Source of the DNA: a virus
Taxonomy: Duplodnaviria; Heunggongvirae; Uroviricota; Caudoviricetes
Virus record (IMG/VR): IMGVR_UViG_2751185957_000009
Direction: 5' to 3' (one strand)
Length of the DNA stretch: 13,336 nucleotides
Shown here: in pieces, positions 3,749 to 13,336 of the stretch
How the letters are laid out: every line of letters begins with the position of its first letter
How positions within the stretch are numbered: position 1 is the first letter of the stretch
Translations under genes and position numbers: made by a program
The notes under the pieces: model-generated
Databases searched by the model: none
The model's input: the letters and a program-made list of their open reading frames with translations, nothing else
What the model was told of the DNA's origin: nothing

Positions 3749-4183
3749 TTACTGTTCTGTATCGGCTGATTGCTCCATGCTGGCACGGCGAACGCTTACG
3801 GCATGACGCCACCCAGCCAGAAAGCCAGCCATTTTATTTCGTGCCTTGCTCACATCTTCCGGTGAATAGCCGTAAATCTGCAAACCTTCATCAAATCGAT
3901 GTTCTGTTTCTTCACTGGAGTACTCGTCACGCTCAGATGAAAGCAGCCTGGCAAACATAATTTTTTCCAGCGCACTGGTTTCTACGTGATATCTGATGGC
4001 CTCAAGACGGCTTTTACCTGAAGACCAAAGCAATGTATGCCCGATGTGATAACCGCCAGACTTTCCGCGATCCGCATTAAGATACGGCATCCCCTGTTTG
4101 GTCCATGCGCGAATAGTGGTTCTGTTAACCTTGAAATGTTCAGCTATTTCCTGCTGACTTACAAAACAAGCTTTATCAATCAT
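3749..4183 (-). CDS. Nu1-like small terminase subunit / packaging-specificity protein (144 aa, shorter than lambda gpNu1)
   Basis: The N-terminus (DKACFVSQQEIAEHFKVNRTTIRAWTKQGMPY) parallels the lambda gpNu1 winged-HTH region (NKKQLADIFGASIRTIQNWQEQGMPV). AAGGT Shine-Dalgarno 6 nt before the ATG. Lies between two cosN copies. Confidence 0.7.
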   Translation of the reverse strand: MIDKACFVSQQEIAEHFKVNRTTIRAWTKQGMPYLNADRGKSGGYHIGHTLLWSSGKSRLEAIRYHVETSALEKIMFARLLSSERDEYSSEETEHRFDEGLQIYGYSPEDVSKARNKMAGFLAGWRHAVSVRRASMEQSADTEQ

Positions 4184-4344: not shown

Positions 4345-4758
4345 TCAGATGGTTTTCAGTATGCGATCGATGTCGCCGTCATCGCCTGGGTTTCTGCCAT
4401 CGTATGCCATGCCAGCTGATACGGTTTGTGGGCTGTGCATGTCCATAAAGTTTTCAAAGGCTGCGGTAAGCTCTGGTGCAACCTTCGGGCGTTCCTGCTC
4501 TATGGTCATGTTCAGGATGTTTTTAGCCGTATCAACATCGATACAAGGCACGTTTGCCATTGCACGCAACAGCGGCTGATAGTCTTTATGCTCATGAAGC
4601 GCCATAATCGCATCAGCGCGCGGCTTGTCCTGCTCTTCCAGTTTGTTGAGTTGATATACGGCCTCGTAGGTTGATAAACCTCTGTCAGCCATTGCCCGCG
4701 CTTCGGCTTTAAATTTACTCGCCAGCGGTAGCGCCATGATGCTTTCATTCGTTGCCAT
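4345..4758 (-). CDS. Hypothetical protein (137 aa), last gene of the capsid operon
   Basis: ORF with GGGGGA Shine-Dalgarno, starts 12 nt after the D-like stop. Acidic C-terminus. No family recognised. Confidence 0.55.
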   Translation of the reverse strand: MATNESIMALPLASKFKAEARAMADRGLSTYEAVYQLNKLEEQDKPRADAIMALHEHKDYQPLLRAMANVPCIDVDTAKNILNMTIEQERPKVAPELTAAFENFMDMHSPQTVSAGMAYDGRNPGDDGDIDRILKTI

Positions 4759-5117: not shown

Positions 5118-6173
5118 TTAACCAATTTTGACGGTAACAAATTTGCGAATATCTGCCGGAACCGGCTGCGGTGCGCTGTGTGTCTGCACGTACTCAATCG
5201 CCGGATCGCCGTCCTCAATCCAGTTTTTCGGGTAGTACATGTTTTGCGTTGCGCCCGTTCTTACCGCTTCCTGATCCATAATCGCACCATAGGCCACCAG
5301 CCCTTTATTGTTGGTGTTGCCCAGGACCAGCAAATCAGGCTCAAGGAAATATTTTTCGGTGCCGTCGCTGTCAGTGTATTTGCCGGAATAGACAATAAGA
5401 GCAATATCGCCCAGATAGCCTTTAAAGCTCACCACTTCGCCCAGGTTTTTACAGGCCATTTCTGCGGCGGATTCTGAACCACGGGAAAGATCGTACAGTT
5501 CACGGAATTTTTTAAAGCTGCGTAACGTGCGCCATACCTCAGCGCCCATAATCATGACGTTGGCGGGGCAACCTGCCTGATCTGCGTATAGTTCGATGTC
5601 ATAGATTGGATCGTAAATATCTTTATCATGCTCGGACCATTTTTTGCCGTCGGACTGCTCTATGATGTTTTTTTCCGGTATCTTCCAGTCGATTTCATAG
5701 CGTTCTATGCCTTCGCCCTCAATGATGTTTTTTCCGGTCGTTACCGCATTCACCGCCAGCCATTCCACGCGTGCCTTAATGGCGTTTATCTGGCGGCGCA
5801 TGTTGCCAGTAATCAGGCGCATACGGCGATAGGTAGGGTCGTTAAGCTGTGCCGGATCTTCTCCAGCCATGCGCATGATGGTTTTCGTTGGATCGATTTC
5901 GTGCTTTGGCTTCATGTAGCCAGGTTTGATTGTGCTGGTTTCGTACCCTTTATCGCGCTGAACCTGGCTACCCACCATAGGCGAACAAAACGCCGACATG
6001 GTGACTTCTTCAATGTCCAGGGTATCCAGCATGATGTTTTGCGTGCTGAATGTCGCCACGTTCGGGAAAAACAGCGTGGTAAACAGAGGGCTGAATTTAA
6101 AATCCGCAATATCCCCGCGATTCAGGTACATAAAAAGCTGGTTAGTGTTAAGTGCCGTTGCTTTGCCTGCCAT
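5118..6173 (-). CDS. Major capsid protein, lambda gpE homolog (351 aa)
   Basis: Conserved blocks shared with lambda gpE along the whole length: DFKFSPLFTTLFF, IKPGYMKPKHEIDP, GEDPAQLNDPTYRRMRLI, VSFKGYLGDIALIVYSG, YPKNWIEDGDPAIEY. Roughly 45-50% identity by eye. Confidence 0.9.
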   Translation of the reverse strand: MAGKATALNTNQLFMYLNRGDIADFKFSPLFTTLFFPNVATFSTQNIMLDTLDIEEVTMSAFCSPMVGSQVQRDKGYETSTIKPGYMKPKHEIDPTKTIMRMAGEDPAQLNDPTYRRMRLITGNMRRQINAIKARVEWLAVNAVTTGKNIIEGEGIERYEIDWKIPEKNIIEQSDGKKWSEHDKDIYDPIYDIELYADQAGCPANVMIMGAEVWRTLRSFKKFRELYDLSRGSESAAEMACKNLGEVVSFKGYLGDIALIVYSGKYTDSDGTEKYFLEPDLLVLGNTNNKGLVAYGAIMDQEAVRTGATQNMYYPKNWIEDGDPAIEYVQTHSAPQPVPADIRKFVTVKIG

Positions 6174-6379
6174 TATTCACCCCCATAATTTTTATGCATC
6201 CCAAGCGCCGCAAGTAAATAAGAGCGTACAAGTGAACCTATCGACGGCTCCGGCGTCATCAGCGGATCCAGTCCAGCCGCCACGCCAGCCTCATAGTTTT
6301 TTTTGTGGCGCTGCTTGAGCACCTCCACGATTTCGGGGCTTATGTACACCGAAACACCGCCTTTTTTCTCTTCAGCCAT
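6173..6379 (-). CDS. Hypothetical small protein (68 aa), first gene of the capsid operon, coupled to the E-like gene
   Basis: Its stop overlaps the E-like start (TAATG). AGGAA Shine-Dalgarno. No family recognised. Confidence 0.55.
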   Translation of the reverse strand: MAEEKKGGVSVYISPEIVEVLKQRHKKNYEAGVAAGLDPLMTPEPSIGSLVRSYLLAALGMHKNYGGE

Positions 6380-6407
6380 AGTAAGAAATTCCTCTTCGAC
6401 TAAAAAA

Positions 6408-6463
6408 ATCAGGACTGGATGTTTATCCAGTCCTGATTATAATCAGAATTGCATTTTATGCAA
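6408..6463 (-). promoter_or_regulatory. Putative sigma70 promoter (TTGCAT-16-TATAAT) overlapped by a perfect 13-bp inverted repeat, upstream of the capsid operon
   Basis: Minus strand: -35 TTGCAT (6463-6458), -10 TATAAT (6441-6436). Palindrome ATCAGGACTGGAT-GTTT-ATCCAGTCCTGAT at 6408-6437, followed on the minus strand by seven T. A second small palindrome TTGCATTTTATGCAA at 6449-6463. Confidence 0.5.
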
Positions 6464-6540
6464 TAATATTGAGTTATGTTGCAAATTATGAAATGATTAT
6501 CCCGATCACGAACGCCAGTGCATCCAAAAACCTCATATGC

Positions 6541-6609
6541 AAAAGCCCGATAAGAACCCTCTGACCTTATCGGGCTTTTTTGGGCGCAAAAAAGCCGGAT
6601 TGCTCCGGC
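6541..6609 (-). terminator. Tandem rho-independent terminators after the 74-aa gene
   Basis: Hairpin 1 (6545-6575): 9-bp stem GCCCGATAA/TTATCGGGC flanked by A4 and T6, so bidirectional. Hairpin 2 (6594-6609): GCCGGA-TTGC-TCCGGC with an A6 run, which is a T-run on the minus strand. Confidence 0.65.
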
Positions 6610-6629
6610 TATGTGTGCTGTGTGCTGGA

Positions 6630-6854
6630 TCAGTCTCTGATCTCTTTCAGAAATTCTATCAATGCATCTATCTGTTCAGGATTTACCGCCAGCATTTCAC
6701 CGGATAGAGCACATCTCACAAAACCATGCTGATCCTTTTCAATCAGTGCGCCCGTCTCCAGGAATGCGCGGTAATCATTGATGCTCATCGTCTCCATGTT
6801 GTCAGCATGGTATTTATCACGCTGTTTTAATATCTCATCAAATTTCATCGGCAT
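6630..6854 (-). CDS. Hypothetical small protein (74 aa), stand-alone gene bracketed by terminators
   Basis: ORF with its own upstream intergenic region (6855-6950), terminators on both sides. No family recognised. Confidence 0.5.
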   Translation of the reverse strand: MPMKFDEILKQRDKYHADNMETMSINDYRAFLETGALIEKDQHGFVRCALSGEMLAVNPEQIDALIEFLKEIRD

Positions 6855-6950: not shown

Positions 6951-6972
6951 AAAAAAGCCGGATTTCTCCGGC
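6951..6972 (-). terminator. Rho-independent terminator after the PerC-like gene
   Basis: AAAAAA-GCCGGA-TTTC-TCCGGC, reading hairpin then T6 on the minus strand, 8 nt after the stop at 6980. Same module as 4317-4338. Confidence 0.7.
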
Positions 6973-6979
6973 TGTTTGA

Positions 6980-7252
6980 TTAGCTGTCCTGGTAATTGCG
7001 CCATATTTCATCACCAGCACCATCTATACCCATTTCGGCATAAGTGCGATCGACTGCCTTTTTCAGGTCTCCGAAATTATCCGGCGGCTCCGGTGCCCTC
7101 TGTGCCTTCCTTGAACATTCCAGCCGTCGCATCGTGATGTGATGCCGTTCCTTGTCTGTCTCCACCAGCTGCATGACTTCACCCCATCGCGCCGCCGCCC
7201 TCCGGTAAAAGCCTTTCGCCTCCAGTTCCTCCGCTATGCGGTCATGTACCAT
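6980..7252 (-). CDS. PerC-family transcriptional regulator homolog (about 90 aa; an upstream in-frame start at 7372 is possible)
   Basis: Motif IAEELEAKGFYRRAAARWGEVM matches the PerC-family signature as I recall it (AExLExxGxWRRAAxRW). The ATG at 7252 is preceded by GAGGGGG and lies 11 nt after the SSB stop. Family assignment from memory. Confidence 0.6.
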   Translation of the reverse strand: MVHDRIAEELEAKGFYRRAAARWGEVMQLVETDKERHHITMRRLECSRKAQRAPEPPDNFGDLKKAVDRTYAEMGIDGAGDEIWRNYQDS

Positions 7253-7262
7253 CGTCACCCCC

Positions 7263-7673
7263 TCAGAACGAAATATCATCACCGTAAGGGTCATCGCCTC
7301 CCGCTGGTGGCTGATTACCCTGTGTGCCTGTGGTTTTGCGTCTGTTCCCGCCTGGACGTGCCGCGCGGGCACTGATTACGCTGTCTGCGATAACCTGCCA
7401 GCCCTGCCGCGTTTCTCCGTTCTGTCCGGTCCACTGGCTTACCTGCATCGTGCCGGATACGCTGGCAACATCGCCTTTTTGATGTTTAGCCAGGAAGTCG
7501 GCCTGTTTGCCAAATGCGATGACCGATAACCATAACGTCGCCTGTCCGTCCTGTGCCTGGCTGCATGGCAAAGATACCGCCATACGCGCCAGCGTCATCG
7601 GTGTGCCCTTGCTGGTCTGTTTTACCTGCGGGTCGTCCACCAGCCGCCCGTAAGCGGCTATCTGTGCCGTCAT
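7263..7673 (-). CDS. ssb: Single-stranded DNA-binding protein (136 aa)
   Basis: OB-fold pattern (GRLVDDP..., WLSVIAFGKQADFLAKHQKGDVASVSGTMQVSQWTGQNGETRQGWQVIADSV), Gly/Pro-rich linker and acidic C-terminal tip DDPYGDDISF resembling the SSB DDDIPF tail. Strong GGAGAGGTGG Shine-Dalgarno. Confidence 0.8.
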   Translation of the reverse strand: MTAQIAAYGRLVDDPQVKQTSKGTPMTLARMAVSLPCSQAQDGQATLWLSVIAFGKQADFLAKHQKGDVASVSGTMQVSQWTGQNGETRQGWQVIADSVISARAARPGGNRRKTTGTQGNQPPAGGDDPYGDDISF

Positions 7674-7921
7674 AATTCCACCTCTCCGGTTTTAACGTTG
7701 ATGGTTGTTACCTGTTCCGCTTCGGCAATCTCCCGTTCTGTCAGCGTGGCAAAGTTTGCCGCCGCCGTGGTCATGAATGCGCTTATCAGGTCGGGATGTT
7801 CCTTCGCGTATCCTTCCCGCGTGTGGCGGTCTATCGTTCTGATTGCCACCTTTAAGGTGTGCTCAGTCATGTCTAACGCTTTATATTTTGGCTCTGTTCT
7901 GTCTCTGCGTTTTTGGGTCAT
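7670..7921 (-). CDS. Hypothetical protein (83 aa), coupled to ssb
   Basis: Its stop overlaps the ssb start (ATGA). ATG at 7921 with GAGAGG Shine-Dalgarno. The longer form in the ORF track would start at a GTG inside the iteron array. Confidence 0.5.
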   Translation of the reverse strand: MTQKRRDRTEPKYKALDMTEHTLKVAIRTIDRHTREGYAKEHPDLISAFMTTAAANFATLTEREIAEAEQVTTINVKTGEVEL

Positions 7922-7930
7922 TTCTCGCAA

Positions 7931-8123
7931 CCTCTCACTTTTTCGCCTCACTTTTTCAAGCGTCTCACTTCGTCGCAGTTGGGATTTTCGGTTTTTCTAT
8001 GTGTGTGTTTTATAAGTATTTTTTTACCCCTCACTTTTGAGGATGTATACAGGTCGAAAAGTGAGGGAGAGCGGGCTAATTTTGGCCCTCTTTCTATCCC
8101 CCTCGCTTTTGCTCCTCACTTTT
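7931..8123. repeat. Putative replication origin: at least six CCTCACTTTT iterons around an AT-rich spacer, directly 3' of the replicase gene
   Basis: Iterons at 7934, 7948, 7964 (variant), 8029, 8101 (variant) and 8114, plus one inverted copy at 8057-8066. AT-rich stretch 7991-8027. The last iteron overlaps the replicase stop codon. Confidence 0.65.
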
Positions 8124-9522
8124 ATAGCGGCGCTACATCATCCCCATCGATACTAATAACCCCATCTTTTTCCAGCTTGTACAGCCAGCGCCGGAAGTTT
8201 TTCATTTCATACCCCAGCTTTTTCATGTCATCACGTAACAGCGGGATCGTGCACTTGTCGCCGTTCTGTGTGCGTGAACGGATGCACCCCCATAGCGCGG
8301 TATGGTTTTCCGTCTTGTTCCCTGCCTCCTCGATGCGCTCCAGTTCAACAGGAGGGCGCGGATCATCCACCACCACCAGCGACGTGATTAATTCACCGTC
8401 AGCGTCGGTAAAAAGCTCCACCACGCGTAAGTCATATGCGGCTTCTTTGAGTTCCTCCGCGTCCTTCATTTTGGTGCATGAGATAACCAGCGCTTTGCTT
8501 CCTGCGTCCTCCCTGCGTATCCGGTATTCAGCATCCAGCGAAGCACGAAATGCACTGGAACCGCGCGCGCCTTTCGTCTCATCCTTGCCGGAATGGTGAA
8601 CCACCAGCACCGTGGCCCCTGTGCGTCGTTTCAGTTCGTCACAACCACGGATAAACGCCCCCATATCACGGGAATCATTTTCATCATTCCCACCAAAGCA
8701 ACGCGCCAGCGTATCCAGAATAATCATGCGTACAGGTTTACCCGTTTCCCGCTCCACCTGACGGGCAGCGATAACCATTTCATCAACATCAAGCGGGGCA
8801 GCCGGAAAGATGGGGCGGTTTACCAGATACAGATTTTTCACCTGCTCATCGTGCACAACCTCCCAGGCTTTTACACGACGCGGAACGCCGATACCGCCTT
8901 CACCAACCACATAGAGAACCGCACCATGTGCAACCCTGCGGCCTCCCCACTGGCGACCAGTGGCAACATGGCACGCCCACGATCCGGCAAGGAATGATTT
9001 ATAGGACCCGCTAGCCCCGTATATGCTGCATAGCGATACCGCCGGAATAATCCCCTTAACCACGTAATCCAGTTGCGTGTCGTATCCGGTAGATCCAACG
9101 CTCATCGGTAGCGTGGTTTTTCGCTGGTGGTTTTTTTCTTCCACCGGCTCTTTCCCGCGCACCCGTTCCAGGTATTCGCGCCAGTTCTCCCGCATATGGC
9201 TGTGCATCCCTTCGGGGTAATAATTCGCATCAGTTACACCCGCCGCCGCCAGCTTGTGCGCAATGGCATTAATATTTGATGGCCTGATGTGGCCTGCCTT
9301 GTACAGCCGGACACAATAGCGCCCCTCGTCGATGATTCTCAGGTCTGCCAGTTCATCCAGTTGATCATCAGCCAGCACAACGGGAGGCACATTATCGCCA
9401 GCCAGTCGCCCGTCCTGTTCCTGCCACTGTTTTGCATGTGCCCAGGCATCACTACCCGCAAAAATAATGACTTCGGTCATCTTGTCGTAAGGCTGTTTTT
9501 TTAAGTTCGGTGCGCTTTTCAT
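8122..9522 (-). CDS. Replication protein with RecA-like AAA_25 ATPase domain (satellite replicase/helicase, 466 aa)
   Basis: P-loop-like YGASGSYKSF, Walker B-like MIILD, and the signature VLVVHHSGKDETKGARGSSAFRASLDAEY typical of AAA_25 replicative ATPases. Its start overlaps the upstream ORF stop (ATGA). Confidence 0.8.
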   Translation of the reverse strand: MKSAPNLKKQPYDKMTEVIIFAGSDAWAHAKQWQEQDGRLAGDNVPPVVLADDQLDELADLRIIDEGRYCVRLYKAGHIRPSNINAIAHKLAAAGVTDANYYPEGMHSHMRENWREYLERVRGKEPVEEKNHQRKTTLPMSVGSTGYDTQLDYVVKGIIPAVSLCSIYGASGSYKSFLAGSWACHVATGRQWGGRRVAHGAVLYVVGEGGIGVPRRVKAWEVVHDEQVKNLYLVNRPIFPAAPLDVDEMVIAARQVERETGKPVRMIILDTLARCFGGNDENDSRDMGAFIRGCDELKRRTGATVLVVHHSGKDETKGARGSSAFRASLDAEYRIRREDAGSKALVISCTKMKDAEELKEAAYDLRVVELFTDADGELITSLVVVDDPRPPVELERIEEAGNKTENHTALWGCIRSRTQNGDKCTIPLLRDDMKKLGYEMKNFRRWLYKLEKDGVISIDGDDVAPL

Positions 9523-9818
9523 TTCTTGCCCCTGAATCCGTTAATCATGGTTTTCAGCTTCTGGATGTTTGCCCGTGCCCTGGCGTTGCTGGTGGGCACG
9601 TTATGCGGCGCGGTCTGTACCAGAGAAAAATCACGCCGGAACTGATAAACAGGCATCACGCAATCATATTCGTAACCTTCACGGCGGTAGGTTACACGCC
9701 GTTCTTCCACGCCCTTAATCATTACCGTGCCGCCGTACTGGTCGCGGTAAATATCACCGCGCGTAAATTTAGGGTGAGTGTTGCCACTGGCAGTTAAGCC
9801 AGAATATTTAAGTTTCAT
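9519..9818 (-). CDS. Hypothetical protein (99 aa), coupled to the replicase
   Basis: ORF with GGAGA Shine-Dalgarno; its stop overlaps the replicase ATG. Confidence 0.5.
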   Translation of the reverse strand: MKLKYSGLTASGNTHPKFTRGDIYRDQYGGTVMIKGVEERRVTYRREGYEYDCVMPVYQFRRDFSLVQTAPHNVPTSNARARANIQKLKTMINGFRGKK

Positions 9819-9823
9819 TATTT

Positions 9824-10057
9824 TTATTCTCCGGTGTGCTGTTCTTTATATCTGTCGTGCAATAGATCTATTTCTTGCAGTTCCATTATTACAGGCTCAA
9901 GAAGCGTTATTAATGCCGTGGCAATTCTTGATTTTTGTTTGTCGCGTTCATTGTCGCCAAGTGTTTCAAGCCATATGCGCAATATTTCCAGCATGTTTTC
10001 ACTGTGAGAAAGTGCAAGAAATGCGCGGTCTATTGTTTCGTGGTAAATATCACGCAT
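9824..10057 (-). CDS. Hypothetical small protein (77 aa)
   Basis: ORF whose ATG overlaps the upstream stop (ATGCGTGA). Helical, acidic composition. Confidence 0.45.
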   Translation of the reverse strand: MRDIYHETIDRAFLALSHSENMLEILRIWLETLGDNERDKQKSRIATALITLLEPVIMELQEIDLLHDRYKEQHTGE

Positions 10058-11392: not shown

Positions 11393-11599
11393 TTAAGCAG
11401 CCGTTCCGCGTGCTTCCTGTTCGCGTTCTTTCTGCCAGGCCAACACATCATCCTCATACCATCCGCGACGGCGTAAACCAACGCGAAAACCCTGCGGAAA
11501 TTCTCCGGCGTTGATCATGCTTTGCAGCGTGCTGTCTGCCTTGATGTGGATAATTTTTTTTACTTCCTGGCGAAAGATAATTTTTCTGATTGCTTCCAT
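11393..11599 (-). CDS. alpA: AlpA-family transcriptional regulator / excisionase-like protein (68 aa)
   Basis: Motif RQEVKKIIHIKADSTLQSMINAGEFPQGFRVGLRRRGWYEDDVLAWQKER matches the AlpA (Phage_AlpA) pattern as recalled (EV..I.....STLY.....G.FP..IKLG.R.V.W...EV..W). AAGGT Shine-Dalgarno. Confidence 0.8.
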   Translation of the reverse strand: MEAIRKIIFRQEVKKIIHIKADSTLQSMINAGEFPQGFRVGLRRRGWYEDDVLAWQKEREQEARGTAA

Positions 11600-12094: not shown

Positions 12095-13336
12095 CTACAC
12101 GGCTCGGATACCCCTTTTACCACTGGCGAGGGTTACGCCCGTCGCCGCAGCCTCGACAAATTCGCCCCACCAGCGCATCAGCACGATGCGTTTTTCTATG
12201 TAGTTGCTCCGGTTGTATGCCCGTCTAACTTCGTTGGTGTCGACGTGGGCAAGTGCCGCCTCTATTACGTCCGGCTCGAATCCTTCCTCGTTCGCTGCTG
12301 TGCTGAATATGGCGCGTAATCCATGAGACACCAGCACGCCAGCGAATCCCATACGCCGCAATGCTGCGTTAGCTGTCTGGCTGTTCATCGGCTGCTGTGG
12401 GTCTTTCAGACTTGGGAAAACGTAATTGCGGTGGTGGCTGATTGGTTTCATGGCCTCCAGCACCGCCATAGCCTGACCGGAAAGCGGGATAACGTGATCC
12501 CTGCGCATCTTCATGCGTCCGGCAGGTATCGTCCATTGCTTCGCGTCCAGGTTGATTTCATCCCACCGCGTTGATGACGCTTCGGCGGGACGGGTTACGG
12601 TCAGTAACTGCCATTCAATCAGTAATCTGGTCTGCCGTTCTGTTGCCGATACTGATAAAGCCTGCATAAGCTCCGGCAGCTGTTCGGGGCGGATTGTTGG
12701 CATATGTTTTTTTACAGGTGAGGGAAACGCCTTACGCACATTCATAGCCGGATTGGCATCAATCAGCCCACTGTTGGCGGCGTAATCCATTACCTCATTA
12801 ACGCGCTGTAAAACCCGCTTGAGTGTTTCCAGGTTGCCGCGCTCCTTGATGGGTGTAAGCACTTCAACGAACCTTCGGGCGGTGAGGGTATCTATTGGCG
12901 TGTTGCCGATGAACGGGAATACATATTTATCCAGCGAACGCCAGATGTCTTTAATCGTGTTGGGGGCCAGATTCTGGCTGATTTTCACCTGGTACCATGC
13001 CGCCGCCACATTTTCGAACGTGTTCCCTTGTCTTCGGGCCTCTGCCTCTCGTTTTTTCTTCTCATGGCCCTGCGGGTCAGTTCCGGCACTGATTAACGCT
13101 CTGTACTCGCTACGGCGTTTTCTGGCATCAGCCAGGGAAACATCATCAAGCGATCCAAAACTCAGCAATATTCTTTTTTTGTCCGATGGCCGGTAGTAGG
13201 AAAATCGCCAGAGTTTTGATCCGGACGGTTTGACCAGGAGAAAAAGCCCTCCGCCGTCCTGTAGGGTGTATTCCTTTTCCGCTGGTCTGGCTGCTTTGAT
13301 CTGCACCGTGGTTAATGGGGGTGTTTTTCTCGCCAT
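12095..13336 (-). CDS. int: P4-type tyrosine integrase (413 aa)
   Basis: N-terminal arm-binding domain typical of P4-like integrases (LTTVQIKAARPAEKEYTLQDGGGLFLLVKPSGSKLWRFSYY), C-terminal catalytic region with HGLR and the tyrosine in RRAYNRSNY. Start codon is the last three bases of the window. Confidence 0.9.
   Translation of the reverse strand: MARKTPPLTTVQIKAARPAEKEYTLQDGGGLFLLVKPSGSKLWRFSYYRPSDKKRILLSFGSLDDVSLADARKRRSEYRALISAGTDPQGHEKKKREAEARRQGNTFENVAAAWYQVKISQNLAPNTIKDIWRSLDKYVFPFIGNTPIDTLTARRFVEVLTPIKERGNLETLKRVLQRVNEVMDYAANSGLIDANPAMNVRKAFPSPVKKHMPTIRPEQLPELMQALSVSATERQTRLLIEWQLLTVTRPAEASSTRWDEINLDAKQWTIPAGRMKMRRDHVIPLSGQAMAVLEAMKPISHHRNYVFPSLKDPQQPMNSQTANAALRRMGFAGVLVSHGLRAIFSTAANEEGFEPDVIEAALAHVDTNEVRRAYNRSNYIEKRIVLMRWWGEFVEAAATGVTLASGKRGIRAV

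Follow-up and report, generated by a model that had tools for sequence, protein, structure and literature searches.

The gene at positions 6980 to 7252 of the analysed viral DNA (13,336 nucleotides in all, hereafter the window) is, judged by its sequence, an allele of pchE, a 'group 3' PerC homologue, and belongs to a phage satellite of Escherichia coli. Its product probably acts as an optional accessory regulator which, by contacting other proteins at silenced, AT-rich promoters, changes the transcription of host genes. The earlier note had also proposed the protein as an activator of the satellite's own late genes; this is not supported by the comparisons reported here, which point to perC not being required for late-gene expression of the island and leave it a weak candidate for the late switch.

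Almost the whole window is a single mobile element transcribed from the minus strand. Its gene content marks it as a Gram-negative PICI of the EcCICFT073/EcCI042 type and confirms the satellite context assumed for the gene: it has int, an alpA-like regulator, a replication gene, a single direction of transcription and a length of around 10-15 kb, and genes for lysis or tails are absent. It shares 98% identity with EcCI042, the island of E. coli 042, and its late module is that of EcCICFT073. The island adjoins yejO and, by comparison with a related genome, tRNA-Pro, and its late module occurs in 598 complete E. coli genomes. Induction and transfer of EcCICFT073 have been shown with lambda and phi80, and the resident prophages of E. 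coli 042 did not transfer its island (PMC6092414, there in Table 1). The features on which the following argument draws are these:

12095 to 13336, minus strand: integrase gene (int)
11393 to 11599, minus strand: gene for an AlpA-like HTH regulator
9519 to 9818, minus strand: gene for a 99-aa RgdR homologue (DUF4222, phrog_285), with an RGD motif at residues 20-22, one of the small early genes
8122 to 9522, minus strand: RepA/AAA_25 helicase gene
7932 to 8121, minus strand: intergenic AAGTGAG iteron region, presumed ori and candidate place for the promoter of the perC unit
7670 to 7921, minus strand: 83-aa gene (orf83), ECs1586 homologue, first in the perC-containing unit (phrog_1231, full length)
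7263 to 7673, minus strand: SSB gene, immediately upstream of perC (PF00436, E=1.7e-16)
7258 to 7264, minus strand: putative Shine-Dalgarno sequence GAGGGGG of perC, read from the sequence and sharing bases with the SSB stop codon
6980 to 7252, minus strand: perC, or pchE-like gene, 90 aa and stop codon, named from PF06069, its identity to PchE and RefSeq usage
6956 to 6973, minus strand: predicted intrinsic terminator at the end of the orf83-SSB-perC unit, AGCCGGAGAAATCCGGCT and then TTTTTT (-13.2 kcal/mol, z -3.9)
6630 to 6854, minus strand: 74-aa gene, ECs1589 homologue (phrog_1957), an optional cassette
6610 to 6593 (with T-run) and 6583 to 6541, minus strand: two predicted hairpins 3' of the 74-aa gene (-15.6 and -22 kcal/mol)
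6436 to 6463, minus strand: predicted sigma-70-like late promoter, -35 TTGCAT at 6463-6458, 16-nt spacer, -10 TATAAT at 6441-6436
6407 to 6438, minus strand: predicted 14-bp hairpin and seven-T run overlapping the -10 element (-22.7 kcal/mol, z -7.1)
6173 to 6379 and 5118 to 6173, minus strand: start of the late operon, a 68-aa gene and the lambda E-like major capsid gene (PF03864, E=3.4e-51; phrog_3255)

The perC reading frame runs from an ATG at 7252 to a stop codon at 6982-6980, and the limits originally assigned to the gene are therefore exact, stop codon included. A longer frame beginning with a GTG at 7372 (130 aa), which a mechanical list of open reading frames offers, is unsupported and overlaps the SSB gene in another frame. 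The Shine-Dalgarno sequence lies 5 nt ahead of the ATG, with the SSB stop codon at 7265-7263, and the same junction, TTCTGAGGGGGTGA(C/G)GATG, is found in related perC-positive islands. Since perC is joined so tightly to the SSB gene and its G+C content resembles that of its neighbours (56-58%), it is unlike a classic moron with its own promoter. Membership of the PerC family, hitherto proposed from the sequence, is borne out by the profile search: PF06069 matches with 146.1 bits (E=3.9e-43; gathering cut-off 22.6 bits), aligning residues 1-89 with profile positions 1-89 of 90, and phrog_994 matches the 90-aa product over its full length. The identical protein, WP_000233304.1, is a 'PerC family transcriptional regulator' in RefSeq and occupies the equivalent position in E. 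coli 042 (EcCI042) and other strains; out of 5426 complete genomes of E. coli, 726 carry the gene at a nucleotide identity of at least 80%.

Both the size of the protein and its N-terminal core (Y-R-R-A-A-x-R-W and R-R-x-x-C) are those of the family. Across 52 aligned relatives, all matching PF06069 and with identities down to 43%, 13 positions are invariant, among them E11, G14, R17, R18, R22, W23, R42, R43 and C46, and 19 more, including Y16, are nearly so. The core E11, G14, Y16-R17-R18, R22-W23, R42-R43 and C46 is common to PerC and PchABC, and the same Pfam family holds the LEE1/ler activators EPEC PerC, from perABC of pEAF, and EHEC PchA/B/C, the 'group 1' proteins. These are nonetheless not the closest relatives of the island protein, which shares about 42% identity with plasmid-borne members and 57% with the cluster named PchABC (P0091, 122 aa). 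Among named proteins, PchE (ECs1588) of E. coli O157:H7 Sakai comes closest, with 90% identity over 90 residues and no gaps.

The likeness to PchE extends to the neighbourhood. Both loci lead from an ECs1586 homologue through the SSB gene and perC to the 74-aa ECs1589 homologue (99% identical between the window and Sp7) and then to a structural module, and the same terminator follows perC in each, so that the high identity to ECs1588 and the ECs1586-SSB-pchE-ECs1589 arrangement that mark 'group 3' are both present. PchE is carried by Sp7, also known as CP-933C or OI-51, which corresponds to the cf-PICI EcCIEDL933 (PMC3378721). Outside this shared segment the two elements differ: the island has a RepA-type helicase whereas Sp7 has a primase, and its late module comprises a lambda E/D-like capsid and decoration pair with Rpp, whereas Sp7 encodes a full HK97-type capsid and packaging set. 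PICI origins are located 3' of the replication gene (PMC6092414), and in the window AAGTGAG(G/A) occurs at least six times, once in inverted orientation, in the region that separates the helicase gene from the 83-aa gene; Sp7 instead has ATAACCCGCA iterons, a difference which matches the differing replication proteins. An attempt to place the mapped pchE transcription start in the window was abandoned, as the two ori regions differ completely. A second counterpart, EcCICFT073, carries the PerC-family gene WP_000233305.1 254 nt upstream of an orf68-capsid-decoration-scaffold-Rpp operon like that of the window, lacks the 74-aa gene and occupies a different chromosomal site, adjoining phoQ.

Much of what can be said about the behaviour of the island gene comes from PchE, which has been under study since 2004 and is treated as a 'group 3' perC homologue (PMC6265319, PMC7369912); all these functional data concern PchE of the O157 cf-PICI, and most were obtained by over-expression from plasmids. 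In the O157 strain PA20 the pchE transcript is polycistronic and starts 10 nt upstream of ECs1586, with no shorter pchE-proximal transcript (PMC7369912). Uninduced PA20 cells express the gene at both 30 and 37 °C, and prophage/SOS induction by SMX-TM lowers its level more than 6-fold (PMC6265319); the activity of the pchE promoter is likewise lowered by SMX-TM (PMC7369912). This fall on induction is the opposite of what would be expected from a late activator, with the caveat that a helper for that island may have been inactive in PA20; it also sets pchE apart from PchABC, lambdoid prophage proteins inducible by SOS (PMC6265319). Over-expression of PchE raises flagellar genes 5- to 24-fold (for flagella, PMC7369912 gives 12-24 fold), increases motility, represses csgD, curli, biofilm, eae and lpfA1, and raises ler about 2-fold (PMC7369912, PMC6265319), whereas deletion phenotypes are weak, with slightly raised curli (PMC6265319, PMC7369912). 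The LEE is little affected by PchD and PchE (PMC6265319), and a lack of effect of PchE on LEE1-lacZ is ascribed to Porter 2005 where that study is cited in PMC11773190. The proposed cross-talk with host virulence regulons thus holds in part: by analogy with PchE it would reach flagella, csgD and curli (PMC6265319, PMC7369912), but hardly the LEE.

The position of perC was likewise only partly as described. It ends the orf83-SSB-perC unit, which follows the replication helicase gene and is closed by a terminator, yet it does not lie directly upstream of the capsid module: the 74-aa gene and three terminator hairpins intervene. The 74-aa gene, present in 19 of 73 related islands, every one of them perC-positive, is flanked by near-identical terminators, AGCCGGAG[A/C]AATCCGGCT, at 6956-6973 and 6593-6610. 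It looks like a cassette gained or lost by recombination between these terminators, or else one functionally paired with PerC. The adjacency of SSB gene and perC is retained more widely, in loci of E. albertii, Kluyvera, Enterobacter, Shimwellia and Buttiauxella, and this linkage across several genera hints at a role in the island's own cycle, for which the tight junction and the base composition of perC also speak.

The evidence that perC is optional comes from 80 fetched loci carrying the same capsid gene at an identity of at least 93%, of which 73 are complete between the SSB gene and the 68-aa gene and form the basis of the counts. perC is present in 42 of these islands and absent from 31, all with the same capsid operon and conserved leader, so that the consistent co-occurrence with late operon and leader that would mark a core late regulator is not found. 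The SSB gene is followed by the terminator alone in 12 loci, by the terminator and a further approximately 170 nt in 19, by perC and the terminator in 21, and by perC, terminator, 74-aa gene and terminator, as in the window, in another 19; in the remaining two, a PerC of 44% identity is followed by a gene for a 226-aa protein. Within about 20 nt of the SSB stop codon, the perC-less forms have a near-identical terminator, (A)GCCGGAG..ATCCGGCT with a T-run, and this is the one that stands 3' of perC in the window. Several perC-less loci, among them L033, L053, L068 and L074, look complete, with int, alpA, replication genes and late operon, and one identical 110-nt leader variant is shared by four perC-positive loci and one perC-negative locus. 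Because perC is polymorphic in islands that share a leader, we regard it as an optional last gene of its unit with no fixed partner in the late operon; in islands lacking it, PerC encoded elsewhere in the genome might act in trans. A small hotspot for cargo may exist between the SSB gene and the late leader. The 226-aa protein beside the divergent PerC (IMG/VR loci L064:5582-6800 and L071) is basic, and one E. coli genome match of this island type lists a 'ProQ/FinO family protein'.

The leader of the late operon gives a similar picture. With 37-38.5% G+C it is AT-rich, surpassed in this respect within the island only by 9800-9999, and among its 48 distinct variants the 125 nt that precede the 68-aa gene show 93% conservation. 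The predicted promoter at 6436-6463 was read from the sequence; all six positions of its -10 element are invariant or at least 90% conserved among these variants, one of which has TGTAAT. It had been named, as a promoter at 6408-6463, as the target of PerC, but the near-consensus TTGCAT-16-TATAAT overlapping a terminator gives no hint of dependence on an activator; relief of repression or silencing appears a more likely requirement than recruitment by an activator. The hairpin at 6438-6407, of which the last three bases of the -10 element form the start, is paired in 95.8% of cells across the 48 variants. Two positions have changed on both sides, and 18 cells hold G-U wobbles, all in the orientation of the genes, which fits a hairpin formed in RNA. 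Transcription from the embedded promoter would begin within the 5' arm, near 6429, so that the RNA would retain only a remnant hairpin of -4.8 kcal/mol and escape; for this reason the hairpin is read as a terminator that would stop transcripts arriving from upstream while the embedded promoter fires past it. Candidate sources of such upstream transcription are perC, the 74-aa gene and a weaker TTCATA-18-TATTAT promoter at 6492-6463. Together with this hairpin and the one at 6583-6541, the terminators at 6973-6956 and 6610-6593 are predicted to insulate the late operon strongly from the perC unit. Control of the lambdoid PR'/qut type, which the hairpin and T-run at first suggest, was rejected, as TATAAT overlaps the hairpin, from which the transcript would escape, and a sensitive blastn search of 50,697 phage records with the leader (6370-6640) returned no match; the hairpin is thus not read as an antitermination target. 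Two related 15-mers occur on the minus strand at a distance of 30 nt, TTTCATAATTTGCAA starting from 6493 and TTGCATAAAATGCAA starting from 6463, and most of their positions are invariant in the 48 variants; the pair is a candidate for regulator sites, perhaps of AlpA or of a helper protein.

Against this background, it is quite unlikely that PerC is a late-gene activator or de-silencer of the island which switches on the 6436-6463 promoter, for instance by lifting H-NS silencing. The placement of perC at the end of an early unit upstream of the late operon, an order of SSB, perC and late module that recurs in EcCICFT073 and Sp7, would suit such a role, as would the AT-rich leader and the precedent of PchA, an H-NS anti-silencer without a strict binding site (PMC4764244). 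However, the 31 perC-less islands, complete-looking ones included, retain the same leader and capsid operon, the promoter does not look activator-dependent, a further gene and three terminator hairpins separate it from perC, and pchE is expressed basally and lowered by prophage induction (PMC6265319). An activator acting on a specific sequence would be expected to travel with its site, and the unrelated leaders and modules found beside PerC therefore count against one: Sp7 combines its 90%-identical PerC with an unrelated late leader, which shares no word of at least 9 nt with that of the island beyond the terminator of the 74-aa gene, and the homologues in E. albertii, E. ruysiae, Kluyvera, Enterobacter, Shimwellia and Buttiauxella, which belong to PICI-like islands of the int-rgdR-primase type, mostly stand directly after the SSB gene and are followed by quite different, unrelated modules. 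The known late activators of satellites and phages, the proteins which turn on capsid genes, are P4 Delta and P2 Ogr, Mu C/Mor and lambda Q; PerC has no profile or fold match to the Ogr/Delta, Mor/C and Q families. Two published results weaken the idea further. Deletion of the capsid or decoration gene leaves transfer and interference of EcCICFT073 unaffected (PMC6092414), and the element is still transferable when c1498-c1501 are swapped for cas9 (PMC10530653); since these capsid-like genes are dispensable for transfer (PMC6092414, PMC10530653), an effect of PerC on the late operon would be hard to detect in the spread of the island. A broader version, in which PerC and PchE are ANR/TPR-like protein-binding modules that serve the island by being produced along with the SSB at the close of the early unit and by loosening silencing of the AT-rich late leader by H-NS-family proteins, with the flhDC and csgD effects secondary and perC-less islands reliant on PerC encoded elsewhere or on the helper, seems to us improbable as well.

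Other roles have to be weighed beside that of a host regulator. PerC could belong to a group of ANR-like anti-activators which, in the manner of Aar, bind AraC/XylS-type activators, H-NS or both and damp virulence genes. Members of the ANR family are built of three helices and bind AraC-type activators as well as H-NS, and PerC shares with them the three-helix module and the lack of a DNA-binding domain (PMC5570504). The NCBIfam ANR model finds sub-threshold matches at residues 7-52, approximately, in 46 of the 52 PerC members (best E=1.1e-5, island PerC 3.3e-4), PchE represses csgD, eae and lpfA1 (PMC7369912), and EcCIMP1_025, a PerC-family protein of the E. coli PICI EcCIMP1 that affects host virulence expression, silences LEE1 in C. 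rodentium, for which its authors suggested an ANR-like role (PMC11773190). Yet the ANR score (NF033650) is 20.4 bits against a curated cut-off of 32, the hhalign comparison of the PerC alignment with Aar is negative (probability 0.4%), and PerC has an additional C-terminal half of some 40 residues compared with the small ANR proteins Aar, Cnr and Rnr. PchE strongly raises flagellar genes, and ler 2-fold (PMC7369912), while EcCIMP1_025 is only about 40% identical to the PerC proteins of EcCICFT073 and EcCIEDL933 and comes from an island devoid of capsid genes (PMC11773190). Given the negative Aar profile comparison, homology of PerC and ANR is not claimed, and we consider the anti-activator reading unlikely. 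An action on the helper phage or on other prophages, such as tuning helper expression in favour of the satellite, would accord with the manipulation of helpers by PICIs (PMC6739421) and with the PerC-like N-terminal domains present in a few phage genomes and in several families of phage proteins that carry the annotation of transcriptional activator. It is nevertheless very improbable: when the EcCICFT073 genes downstream of ori were cloned singly, c1503 (Rpp) alone interfered with lambda (PMC6739421), and sequenced phages seldom carry a close PerC homologue (7 records, none reaching 42% identity). That perC is a hitch-hiking remnant without current function might be thought from its dispensability in many islands and from the weak phenotypes of pchE deletion (PMC6265319, PMC7369912); however, an intact and strongly conserved reading frame, a good ribosome-binding site, the wide distribution of the gene and the strong and specific phenotypes of PchE over-expression make this scarcely credible.

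The preferred reading, an optional accessory regulator of host genes, can be set out as a putative sequence of steps. perC, as an accessory gene, would stand last in the orf83-SSB-perC unit and, by analogy with pchE, would be transcribed with the two genes upstream in uninduced cells and lowered on SOS or prophage induction. Again by analogy, the protein would raise flagellar genes and lower csgD, curli and biofilm, leaving the LEE hardly changed. At the molecular level, PerC would contact nucleoid-associated or regulatory proteins at AT-rich promoters silenced by H-NS, in line with the H-NS anti-silencing shown for PchA, and is probably not a classical site-specific activator. The fold is predicted to be all-helical and TPR-like, without a recognisable DNA-binding domain, and action via protein contacts is for that reason the most likely; a sequence search of solved structures returned chance-level PACSIN matches only, and a fold search of viral models returned PerC-like phage proteins only. 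Activation of LEE1 by PchA depends wholly on silencing by H-NS, StpA and Hha, requires no strict upstream activating sequence and is accompanied by lowered H-NS occupancy (PMC4764244). In the same work, Fukui et al. saw no co-precipitation of PchA with H-NS and found Pch associated with DNA by ChIP, and the contact mechanism is on these grounds not established (PMC4764244).

The presence of PerC alleles in E. coli PICIs has been known since 2018, when Fillol-Salom et al. noted that some of these islands encode them (PMC6092414), and Pick et al. 2025 described PerC-family regulators as common in Gram-negative PICIs, naming EcCICFT073 and EcCIEDL933 (PMC11773190). PerC and Pch proteins connect mobile elements with the virulence, motility and biofilm programmes of the host, and a satellite that carries perC can spread such regulatory input among strains at high frequency, as has already been published (PMC6092414, PMC11773190, PMC6265319, PMC7369912). 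What is added here is modest: the quantified presence and absence of perC in collinear islands and the description of the late-operon leader. The polymorphism argues for perC as cargo and against a place in the core circuitry of the satellite, and perC is not a strong candidate for the late-operon switch of Gram-negative PICIs.

Several further features of the element and its surroundings were noted. The late operon continues from the 68-aa and lambda E-like capsid genes with a lambda D-like decoration gene, a gene for a 137-aa protein, an Rpp-type HTH gene and a gene for a 93-aa protein. The 137-aa protein (4345-4758, minus strand) matches the C-terminal part of phrog_53, a head-maturation-protease family (positions 494-567 of 583), which is a Nu3-like scaffold domain; the island thus encodes capsid, decoration and scaffold-like proteins, yet EcCICFT073 is reportedly packaged in full-size helper capsids. 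The HTH protein (144 aa; 3749-4183, minus strand) gives weak MerR/BldC-like and terminase-small-subunit matches, and its gene occupies the place of EcCICFT073 c1503 (Rpp), which redirects helper packaging; this slot holds a different gene in many related islands, and rpp is missing from it in about two thirds of the compared loci. With the RgdR homologue, the island carries two small regulators with reported host effects, the RGD motif of O157 RgdR being required for activation of type III secretion (PMC3378721). To the left of the element lies chromosomal DNA, in which a 746-aa autotransporter frame (270-2510) adjoins a fragment of an IS3-family transposase (19-285) and is, by comparison, yejO, a pseudogene in the compared strain, and not island cargo; its resemblance to Ag43 merely reflects a common autotransporter architecture.
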